Positions 28,518 through 48,131 of a stretch of 48,131 nucleotides of DNA are shown here, in pieces. Source of the stretch: an uncultured Acinetobacter sp. (GTDB lineage Bacteria > Pseudomonadota > Gammaproteobacteria > Pseudomonadales > Moraxellaceae); the NCBI GenBank assembly GCA_947627655.1, contig CANQWW010000001.1, forward strand, positions 1 through 48,131, in the 5' to 3' direction. Both the position numbers and the translations under genes were made by a program. The notes beneath the pieces are model-generated. The model did no database searches. It saw nothing but the letters and a program-made list of their open reading frames with translations, and was not told the origin of the DNA. How positions within the stretch are numbered: position 1 is the first letter of the stretch; each line of letters begins with the position of its first letter.

Positions 28518-28623
28518 CGCCTTTAAGTTCCCTCTCCTTTTTAAAGGATGAGCGTTATAACGTGCAAGAGGGAGAGGATTTATTGAATCACTGCCCCTTT
28601 TTAATCTTATAAAACATATTTTC

Positions 28624-28731
28624 TTTGCGTAGGCATTGCCTTACTTTTGAAAGATCAAAAGTAACAAAAATCTCTTGTTCACTTGATGATACGTCCATGT
28701 ATCACAAGTGAACGGCGACATCCATGTCGCC
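28624..28731 (+). repeat. Structured intergenic element, copy 1 (three hairpins, candidate pseudoknot; putative ncRNA or non-autonomous mobile repeat)
   Basis: Hairpins at 28641-28664, 28677-28713 (bulged A) and 28714-28731; same architecture as 48008-48117, with compensatory substitutions. Confidence 0.8.
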
Positions 28732-28749: not shown

Positions 28750-29787
28750 TTAATTATCTAAAAATTTTGGAATATTCAATATTTCAGTAGGAATCTCTAA
28801 ATATTCATAGATAGCATTACTCTTATCTGCTAAACGTTCATCATTTGTAATGAAATAGTCACAATAACTTGCATAAGCTACATGTGAAATATCTGATTGT
28901 GCACTGACAAATTTTTTCTCATTCTTAACTTTCTTTTCTGGTCTAAAGCCACTTAAATTTAAATTTGTATAGATTGCATGTATTTTCCCAAAATTATGAG
29001 TCACATTTCTAATTTTTAAGAAATCATCGAATTCGACTTCAGCTAAGGAAGGATTACTCTTTTTAAGAGTTTCCCAAATTTTTTTTAAAACTTTAGGACT
29101 TTTAATTTTATTAATTTCATCAATATTTATCTGTAACCCTTTTCTATAAGCTAAGTGAGCATCCGTTTCATTATTGAGTTGCTTTAGATGATTAGAATTT
29201 TGTCGCACACTCTCCTCAAACTCAGGCATTTGTTTTCTTAAACCTTCCAATTCATTTTCTTTTTGTTTAATAAATAAATCATAAAGTGGATGTTTAATTT
29301 TTTCATTCTTTAGAATATTTATTTGCTGCTCAAGGAATTCTAATAATGCATATTGAGCCTTAATTTGTGAATCTGCCATGCCTTCATAATCTTGAATACC
29401 TCCATACATAGCAAAAATACTTTTCTGAAGTGGGTTTATAAATTCATCATATTTCAAACTCTCATTAATATATTTTTCATAGATTTCTTTTACTGAACCA
29501 GATAAAAGCCTCATTTGACCTGTAAATTCAAACTTCTCATTGATTTTTGCTTCAATATAAATAGCACTTAGTTGATCTAATAAAACTAAAAACTCATCAG
29601 AATATTTACTGTCTTTTATACCTGCTCTATAGATTTCCTGAAGTGTGATATTTGAATAAACTACTTGTACACGTTCTAAAAACCCTTTCACGAAGTCTGG
29701 CTCGGTTTGAATACAATTCAAAAAGCCATCTAAAATATTTTGATCTAAATAAGCTAACGGTTTTCCTGAATATTCTAGTTCTTTCAT
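28750..29787 (-). CDS. AT-rich hypothetical protein with split PIN-like nuclease motifs
   Basis: N-terminal LAYLDQNIL...SNITLQEI and C-terminal DISHVAYASYCDYFITNDERL; two sampled 60-nt lines are 27-28% GC. Confidence 0.7.
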   Translation of the reverse strand: MKELEYSGKPLAYLDQNILDGFLNCIQTEPDFVKGFLERVQVVYSNITLQEIYRAGIKDSKYSDEFLVLLDQLSAIYIEAKINEKFEFTGQMRLLSGSVKEIYEKYINESLKYDEFINPLQKSIFAMYGGIQDYEGMADSQIKAQYALLEFLEQQINILKNEKIKHPLYDLFIKQKENELEGLRKQMPEFEESVRQNSNHLKQLNNETDAHLAYRKGLQINIDEINKIKSPKVLKKIWETLKKSNPSLAEVEFDDFLKIRNVTHNFGKIHAIYTNLNLSGFRPEKKVKNEKKFVSAQSDISHVAYASYCDYFITNDERLADKSNAIYEYLEIPTEILNIPKFLDN

Positions 29788-47822: not shown

Positions 47823-48007
47823 AATTCACTCTATTATTTGATATTTTTTCTTATTGTAATAAAAAAGAGGTAGCACAACATTACTATCCCACAATTTTAA
47901 CTAAACTTGTATAAAGCAATAAAAGATTGATTTAACTATATGAAATTTATTCACATTGATAGTTAAATATTACACAGCCTCATATTCTGTTTAAAAGTTT
48001 CAATGAA

Positions 48008-48117
48008 TTTGTGTAGGCAAAACCCTACTTTGGAAAGACCCAAAGTAGGCAAAGGTCTCTTATTACCCATACACGACGTCCTGTCGTGATGGGTAATGTG
48101 TGGCATCCCTGCCACAC
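48008..48117 (+). repeat. Structured intergenic element, copy 2
   Basis: Hairpins at 48024-48049, 48062-48097 (bulged A) and 48098-48117; same fold as 28624-28731. Confidence 0.8.
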
Positions 48118-48131
48118 GCGCGTAGCTTAAA

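Follow-up and report, generated by a model that had tools for sequence, protein, structure and literature searches.

A compact TwoAYGGAY-like repeat in Acinetobacter genomes, with twin GGA hairpins, a covarying pseudoknot and copies carried by an IS4-type MITE

The closest described family to the repeat studied here is TwoAYGGAY (RF01731; PMC2864571), in which, as far as the portions of that account covered here go, two GGA-loop hairpins lie side by side on one strand, a short one ahead of a long one with a bulge, with many copies per genome. The sections of PMC4333381 covered propose CsrA binding for TwoAYGGAY and describe the ANGGAN-type loop as a CsrA-binding loop. An extended form found in Pseudomonadota has a 3′ pseudoknot, variable copy number and inverted doublets, and the main text of the preprint concerned (bioRxiv 10.64898/2026.09.22.753630) already proposes a Csr sponge function and mobile-like expansion; that main text contains neither ‘Acinetobacter’ nor ‘triplex’ and, in the sections compared, names no mobilising transposase, although the supplement may treat some of these points. 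For Pseudomonas fluorescens SBW25, the parts of PMC2718517 covered report 47 copies of the 320 bp repeat R200, together with a tail-to-tail bias for intergenic repeats overall. Since SBW25 has 47 R200 copies and 48 TwoAYGGAY matches, the two are, by copy numbers alone, probably the same element; R200 goes unmentioned in the REPIN literature compared. An earlier note on the present DNA, made from the letters only, had suggested a likeness to R200. The likeness holds to the extent that Pseudomonas loci share the pseudoknot stem and twin GGA hairpins, and it is the identity of those loci with R200 that is drawn from copy numbers. YPAL of Yersinia inserts into terminators. It likewise has two neighbouring GGA-loop hairpins, but differs in the rows compared (PMC2267715, supplement) in being a single long palindrome with no T/A-tract pseudoknot.

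The window (the whole 48,131-nt stretch of Acinetobacter DNA that was analysed) contains two look-alike segments, at 28624..28731 (copy 1) and 48008–48117 (copy 2), and the modules claimed for them were confirmed at these positions (table 1). The segments are identical at 72 of 114 alignment columns, and both out-fold shuffled sequences on either strand, whether treated as RNA or DNA (z −6.0 to −8.4; none of 200 shuffles equal). An Rfam scan of the window gave no match at gathering cut-off and weak hits at E values up to 1. RF01731 itself had no hit in the window at its cut-off of 43 bits, and its sole match in the present genome (G000) was copy 1 on the minus strand, at a sub-threshold 26 bits (E 0.0995). 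One locus from Pseudomonas (L225) clears the RF01731 cut-off and has the same pseudoknot stem, and a long homologue gave a weak match to RsmW (E 0.031), also on the minus strand.

Table 1. Features in the window and their coordinates (position 1 is the first base of the window).
Feature	Position	Strand	Remarks
Separate palindrome, similar to those beside DUF559 genes	28528..28579		3′ arm holds the TGAG-palindrome-GCAAG cassette, 28549–28568
Copy 1, family 3′ tail motifs	28589..28634	−	GCCTAC and, about 25 nt on, a GGC-containing motif; degenerate here
Copy 1, T-tract/A-tract hairpin, 9 bp	28641..28664	−	Loop 28652–28655 forms the pseudoknot with the linker
Copy 1, linker	28665..28676	−	Pseudoknot strand 28670–28673 and T-tract 28665–28669
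Copy 1, second GGA hairpin, 15 bp, one bulged T, ANGGAN loop	28677..28713	−	Covariation
Copy 1, first GGA hairpin, 7 bp, loop core CATGGATG (CsrA/TwoAYGGAY-type)	28714..28731	−	ANGGAN in 74/79 copies
IS4-type MITE around copy 2	47879..48131		Left terminal inverted repeat starts at 47879; contig end truncates the right end
Copy 2, pseudoknot module	48024..48058	−	Hairpin 48024–48049; loop 48036–48039 pairs with 48055–48058
Copy 2, twin GGA hairpins	48062..48117	−	48098–48117 and 48062–48097

The fold was analysed in copies collected with a sequence-only profile, which yielded 178 hits and, with partial and cassette-bearing copies excluded, 79 non-redundant copies. On the minus strand, the loops of the first and second hairpins read ANGGAN in 74 and 76 of the 79, respectively, the strict AYGGAY form being present in 56 first loops and 13 second loops. 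All 15 pairs of the second hairpin change on both sides, and its bulge is a T (minus strand) in 76/79 copies. In an alignment of 84 distinct copies, which was fitted to the covariance model, 98.6% of cells are paired and 27 of 31 pairs vary on both sides. The AAAGA loop and TCTCTT linker, listed as unpaired in the earlier note, pair with each other to form a pseudoknot: three positions covary (0/2000 shuffles were as good), a fourth pair is a near-invariant G–C, and two of the pairs fall within the top 20 by mutual information. The T-tract of the linker is the predicted third strand of a triple helix. Covariation in the stems and in the pseudoknot supports selection on a single-stranded fold, as had been proposed from the two copies; the plus strand then favoured is not supported. 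The G–T closing pair that had pointed to it is not conserved, being formed in only 24/79 non-redundant copies, and the base behind it ends the minus-strand ANGGAN loop. Wobble pairs are more numerous when the minus strand is read, both in the stems (43 versus 19, p = 0.003) and in the pseudoknot (31 versus 13, p = 0.01), in counts where kin are not independent. They are scarce altogether: the stems hold 2337 Watson–Crick pairs, 43 minus-strand G–T, 19 plus-strand G–T and 40 other pairs, a ratio of 43 to 2337 as against 29 to 447 in the tRNA stems of the same genome, which suits DNA, or self-correction of palindromes. No basal stem enclosing both hairpins was detected (best flank duplex 4.33 bp, versus 4.36 bp in shuffles). 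Across the genus, a CTATCGYG motif lies at most 16 nt 5′ of the first GGA hairpin on the minus strand in 28 of 77 copies, compared with 0–1 in control windows; copy 1 does not have it.

With its loops scored as ANGGAN, the Acinetobacter element has the two AYGGAY-type hairpins of TwoAYGGAY, in the same order, short then long and bulged, as in the seed rows compared. It differs in the absence of the basal stem, in a second loop that is mostly ANGGAN rather than AYGGAY, and in the pseudoknot that follows directly. With the extended form, as presented in the main text of the preprint, it shares a 3′ pseudoknot, multiple copies and inverted doublets, although it measures only about 115–165 nt and is without the elongated basal stem. 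Alignment to Pseudomonas loci suggests that the two pseudoknots are the same. The Acinetobacter repeat is likely a minimal variant of extended TwoAYGGAY and descended from it, ‘minimal’ because the basal stem is absent and the score lies below the Rfam cut-off. It is not wholly novel. In the literature compared, neither the Acinetobacter form and its capture by an ISAbe18-like MITE nor the cross-phylum mirror-repeat signal and csrA-linked GGA hairpins treated below are described, and searches found nothing joining CsrA, GGA repeats and MITEs, or a triple-helix pseudoknot in bacterial intergenic repeats.

What had looked like a two-copy feature is a dispersed repeat. A covariance model built from 10 copies of the present genome gave 44 matches in that genome (80% complete), 12 of them free-standing and diverged, copy 1 included, and the other 32 near-identical to one another, like copy 2, and situated inside a MITE. 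Fifty-one of 60 other Acinetobacter genomes were positive, with 1–27 matches per positive congener, and nine had no match to the model. A class-wide draw gave matches in 5/140 genomes, all of them longer forms; this low yield is explained by the tuning of the model to Acinetobacter. Inverted pairs of the module (doublets) are found at L157, L163, L167 and L194. The repeat or mobile nature considered in the earlier note is therefore supported by copy number, genus-wide spread and the MITE. Viral sequences gave 57 pattern matches, which we attribute to chance (none was scored by the covariance model), and 10 matches in a phage collection all came from a single multi-contig record (contigs of 16–306 kb) that resembles a host assembly. 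TwoAYGGAY is an abundant family, of which the 115-nt Acinetobacter form keeps just the two GGA hairpins and the pseudoknot. This form is invisible to Rfam, present in most of the Acinetobacter genomes searched and found in a genus with tractable laboratory strains; its small size and wide presence therefore make it the simplest object for questions of CsrA sponging, of RNA versus DNA function and of a possible bacterial triple helix.

Some copies have unusual surroundings. One near-identical module copy is found on 16 Acinetobacter plasmids (H7–H21). In the present genome, a tandem duplication of approximately 228 bp covers the module and the start of a neighbour gene (C46:16100–16510), and long arrays of a 6-nt unit stand beside two free copies at contig ends (C136:6640–6794 and C158:1–85). 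In the relative G002, an insertion sequence whose 320-aa ORF is transposase-like, and which we take to be IS30-like, lies between two inverted module copies (L336; C23:104500–108500), one of which is cut at the pseudoknot hairpin.

The near-identical copies of the present genome are embedded in an element whose inverted ends have the core CTGTCCCA. That genome contains 41 left ends, 37 right ends and 22 complete copies of 279–352 bp; a target duplication of 10–14 bp (at most one mismatch), mostly in terminator-like hairpins, accompanies 11 of the 22. The element carrying copy 2 is itself inserted in a terminator-like hairpin, at a site that is empty in all seven relatives read. Its autonomous partner is a 1.27 kb IS4 element with the same ends and a DUF4372/DDE_Tnp_1 transposase, annotated in plasmids as IS4 family, ISAbe18-like; the sequence common to partner and MITE is confined to the ends (18–27 terminal bases), and in the present genome ends of the partner are found at the edges of contigs C122 and C150. 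ISAbe18-like elements thus have terminal inverted repeats and a terminator target in common with the carrier of copy 2, but possess their own transposase and lack the folded module. With its inverted repeats, target duplications, empty sites and autonomous IS4 partner, and with no transposase of its own, that carrier is a MITE. Copy 2 is probably a passenger, copied into terminators about 40 times by an ISAbe18-like transposase. The MITE offers a tangible mechanism for the multiplication of such modules.

Copy 1 is without MITE-type ends and lies between a 118-codon ORF, located after metG, and a convergent 345-codon ORF. The comparison of filled and empty sites that had been proposed finds its site empty in six of seven relatives, with G002 carrying a 98% identical copy after metG; for copy 2 the figure is seven of seven. 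The free copies show no definable target duplication. The convergent ORF (28750–29787, minus strand) is AT-rich, encodes 345 aa with no Pfam match and occupies a variable slot after metG; the genes in the slot after the module differ among relatives and public runs.

The separate palindrome near copy 1 is presumably boxC-like. The cassette that it holds, TGAG followed by a variable palindrome and GCAAG, replaces approximately 6–7 nt of hairpin 3′ arms, on either strand, in several unrelated repeat families, and has 41 strict matches in the genome versus 3 in the reversed genome. Beyond the window site it occurs at some 40 places in the present genome (e.g. C136:6621, C158:108, C45:16429 and C9:52) and at L140, L339 and L343; a cassette-free allele of the window site was found in G002 and in one public run. 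Clusters of boxC-like palindromes also flank DUF559 endonuclease genes in most of 20 congener loci (L376–L395), in an arrangement that resembles that of REP and RAYT. The DUF559 gene of the present genome (C3:44780–45520) has an in-frame stop, and a literature search by title returned no work on DUF559 with palindromic repeats so arranged.

With genes called crudely as long ORFs, only 2 of 130 free loci fall between divergent genes, compared with 236 of the 961 gaps of the present genome, and 47 of the 130 fall between convergent genes. Where the flanking genes are co-directional, 55 of 81 free loci place the GGA strand antisense to the mRNA, and both orientations occur within 7 of 58 site clusters (doublets included). 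The sites of free copies are maintained across several species, and their neighbours are unrelated, mostly housekeeping genes. A promoter on the GGA strand is unsupported, a −10-like hexamer being present in 23/77 copies and in 15–26 of the control windows, and no intrinsic terminator signal was found at the module; membership of the Rsm/Csr class of small RNAs, which has both, is not supported on these grounds. Public RNA runs, taken in small shares and as contigs, contained the cassette-free allele and showed no transcription. csrA was found in five of five congeners and not in the present 80%-complete assembly.

Integron attC sites are defined by RYYYAAC...GTTRRRY polarity and a cassette context. 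The suggestion that the module is attC-like failed on both counts: its long hairpin reads GTT...AAC on both strands, and its neighbours are mostly housekeeping genes. Assignment to the REP/REPIN elements with a Y1 transposase (RAYT) is likewise unsupported, as the present genome has no flanked Y1 gene and the module occurs in none of 18 Y1 loci.

The most likely role of the element, to which we assign a probability of roughly 55%, is that of a CsrA-binding RNA: a dispersed, minimal TwoAYGGAY-like repeat whose minus strand is predicted to fold into two GGA hairpins that would bind a CsrA dimer, and a pseudoknot that a U-rich third strand likely stabilises. The free copies would then be old residents of gene ends, spread by some enzyme; wherever read-through transcripts cover the GGA strand, these copies would act as modules that bind CsrA and fold compactly at the 3′ side. 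Copy 2 would be multiplied as a passenger, into terminators, by the ISAbe18-like transposase. Against this explanation stand the absence of any promoter or transcript sign, the antisense bias, the presence of both orientations in some site clusters, the few G–U pairs, the missing basal stem, the scarcity of strict AYGGAY second loops, the failure to find csrA here, the small number of lineages behind the csrA association and, in some long forms, the short connecting loops. The paucity of G–U is better accommodated if a nuclease or recombinase acting in trans recognises the structure in single-stranded DNA, as happens with REP elements, the free copies having spread in this way, with GGA forming DNA recognition loops and CsrA binding incidental. 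This explanation, which we rank next and regard as a real though lesser contender, draws further on the REP-like placement of the free loci between genes, on the occurrence of both orientations at the same sites and of inverted doublets, and on the cassettes, which swap 6–7 nt of 3′ stem arms on either strand just as in the DUF559-flanking palindromes. It wants a partner gene, however, and none was found: a Y1/HUH partner was sought, an HUH target having been among the candidates of the earlier note, and Y1 transposases are absent from the present genome and occur in 11/60 congeners, compared with 51/60 for the module; the module is missing from all 38 Y1 or DUF559 loci examined; neither a DUF559 partner nor any other recurrent neighbour of the module emerged; and the 141 neighbours of the pan-bacterial motif described below share no recurrent nuclease family. 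The association of GGA loops with csrA also counts against it.

Nearly all changes in the stems are two-sided with few wobble intermediates, as would be seen if the repeat were a tolerated relic whose palindromes stay perfect through template switching or gene conversion that mimics compensation, only the MITE being active. The congeners that lack a match and the relatives with an empty copy 1 site fit that view too. Copying of arms cannot, on the other hand, explain invariant loop bases, a conserved bulge, covariation between loop and linker or mirror symmetry, and the same sites are retained across several species, so that we think a relic improbable. Least credible of all, given the mixed orientation, the unrelated neighbours and the lack of promoter and terminator signals, is the view of every copy as a separate Rsm-type small RNA gene or as a leader that regulates the next gene in cis, for which the twin GGA hairpins and the CTATCGYG motif might argue.

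We also looked beyond the genus with a pattern consisting of a T/A-tract hairpin and a CAAAG tail, scanned over 2 of 64 database parts. It detected 123 loci across Pseudomonadota, Bacteroidota, Bacillota, Spirochaetota and others. Loop–tail pairing of at least 5 bp was present in 41 of 110 distinct loci, versus 13 when shuffled (maximum 23). The tail mirrors the purine tract of the stem base for base, G opposite G and A opposite A, with the full run in 56 of 83 eligible loci versus 24 when shuffled (maximum 31), in a test where the first four tail bases were preset by the search pattern and related loci do not count as independent. A major-groove triple helix of U–A–U and C–G–C triples on the minus strand would require just this register. 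In some long forms, judged by loop length, the plus strand is the better fit for a classical pseudoknot, and in some the connecting loops are, on a geometric reading, too short for a full-length minus-strand RNA pseudoknot. GGA hairpins stand beside the pseudoknot in 15 of 23 gammaproteobacterial loci outside Burkholderiales and in all seven loci from Negativicutes, compared with 0/20 loci in Burkholderiales, 0/17 in Bacteroidota and 0/31 among clostridia. Among the 50 of 123 loci tested, many of them in incomplete assemblies, csrA was present in 19/21 genomes with GGA hairpins and 5/29 without; leaving out the unpublished genome G325 gives 18/20 positives, a signal that rests on few lineages. 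Speculatively, the core unit could be, rather than the GGA hairpins, a pan-bacterial triple-helix pseudoknot (T/A-tract stem with a mirror-image third strand) at the heart of a large, unrecognised superfamily of self-spreading structured repeats that gained CsrA-binding hairpins only where the lineage carries csrA, with the Acinetobacter element as the smallest complete form. If so, capture by a MITE would allow a several-fold shift in the CsrA-binding capacity of a genome within a single burst.

A second type of element in the present genome (C46:4950–5500, C76, C144, C181 and C95:3450–3950) pairs the pseudoknot hairpin with a long stem that comes after it and has no GGA loops. A second MITE family, with different IS4-type ends, carries three of its copies.
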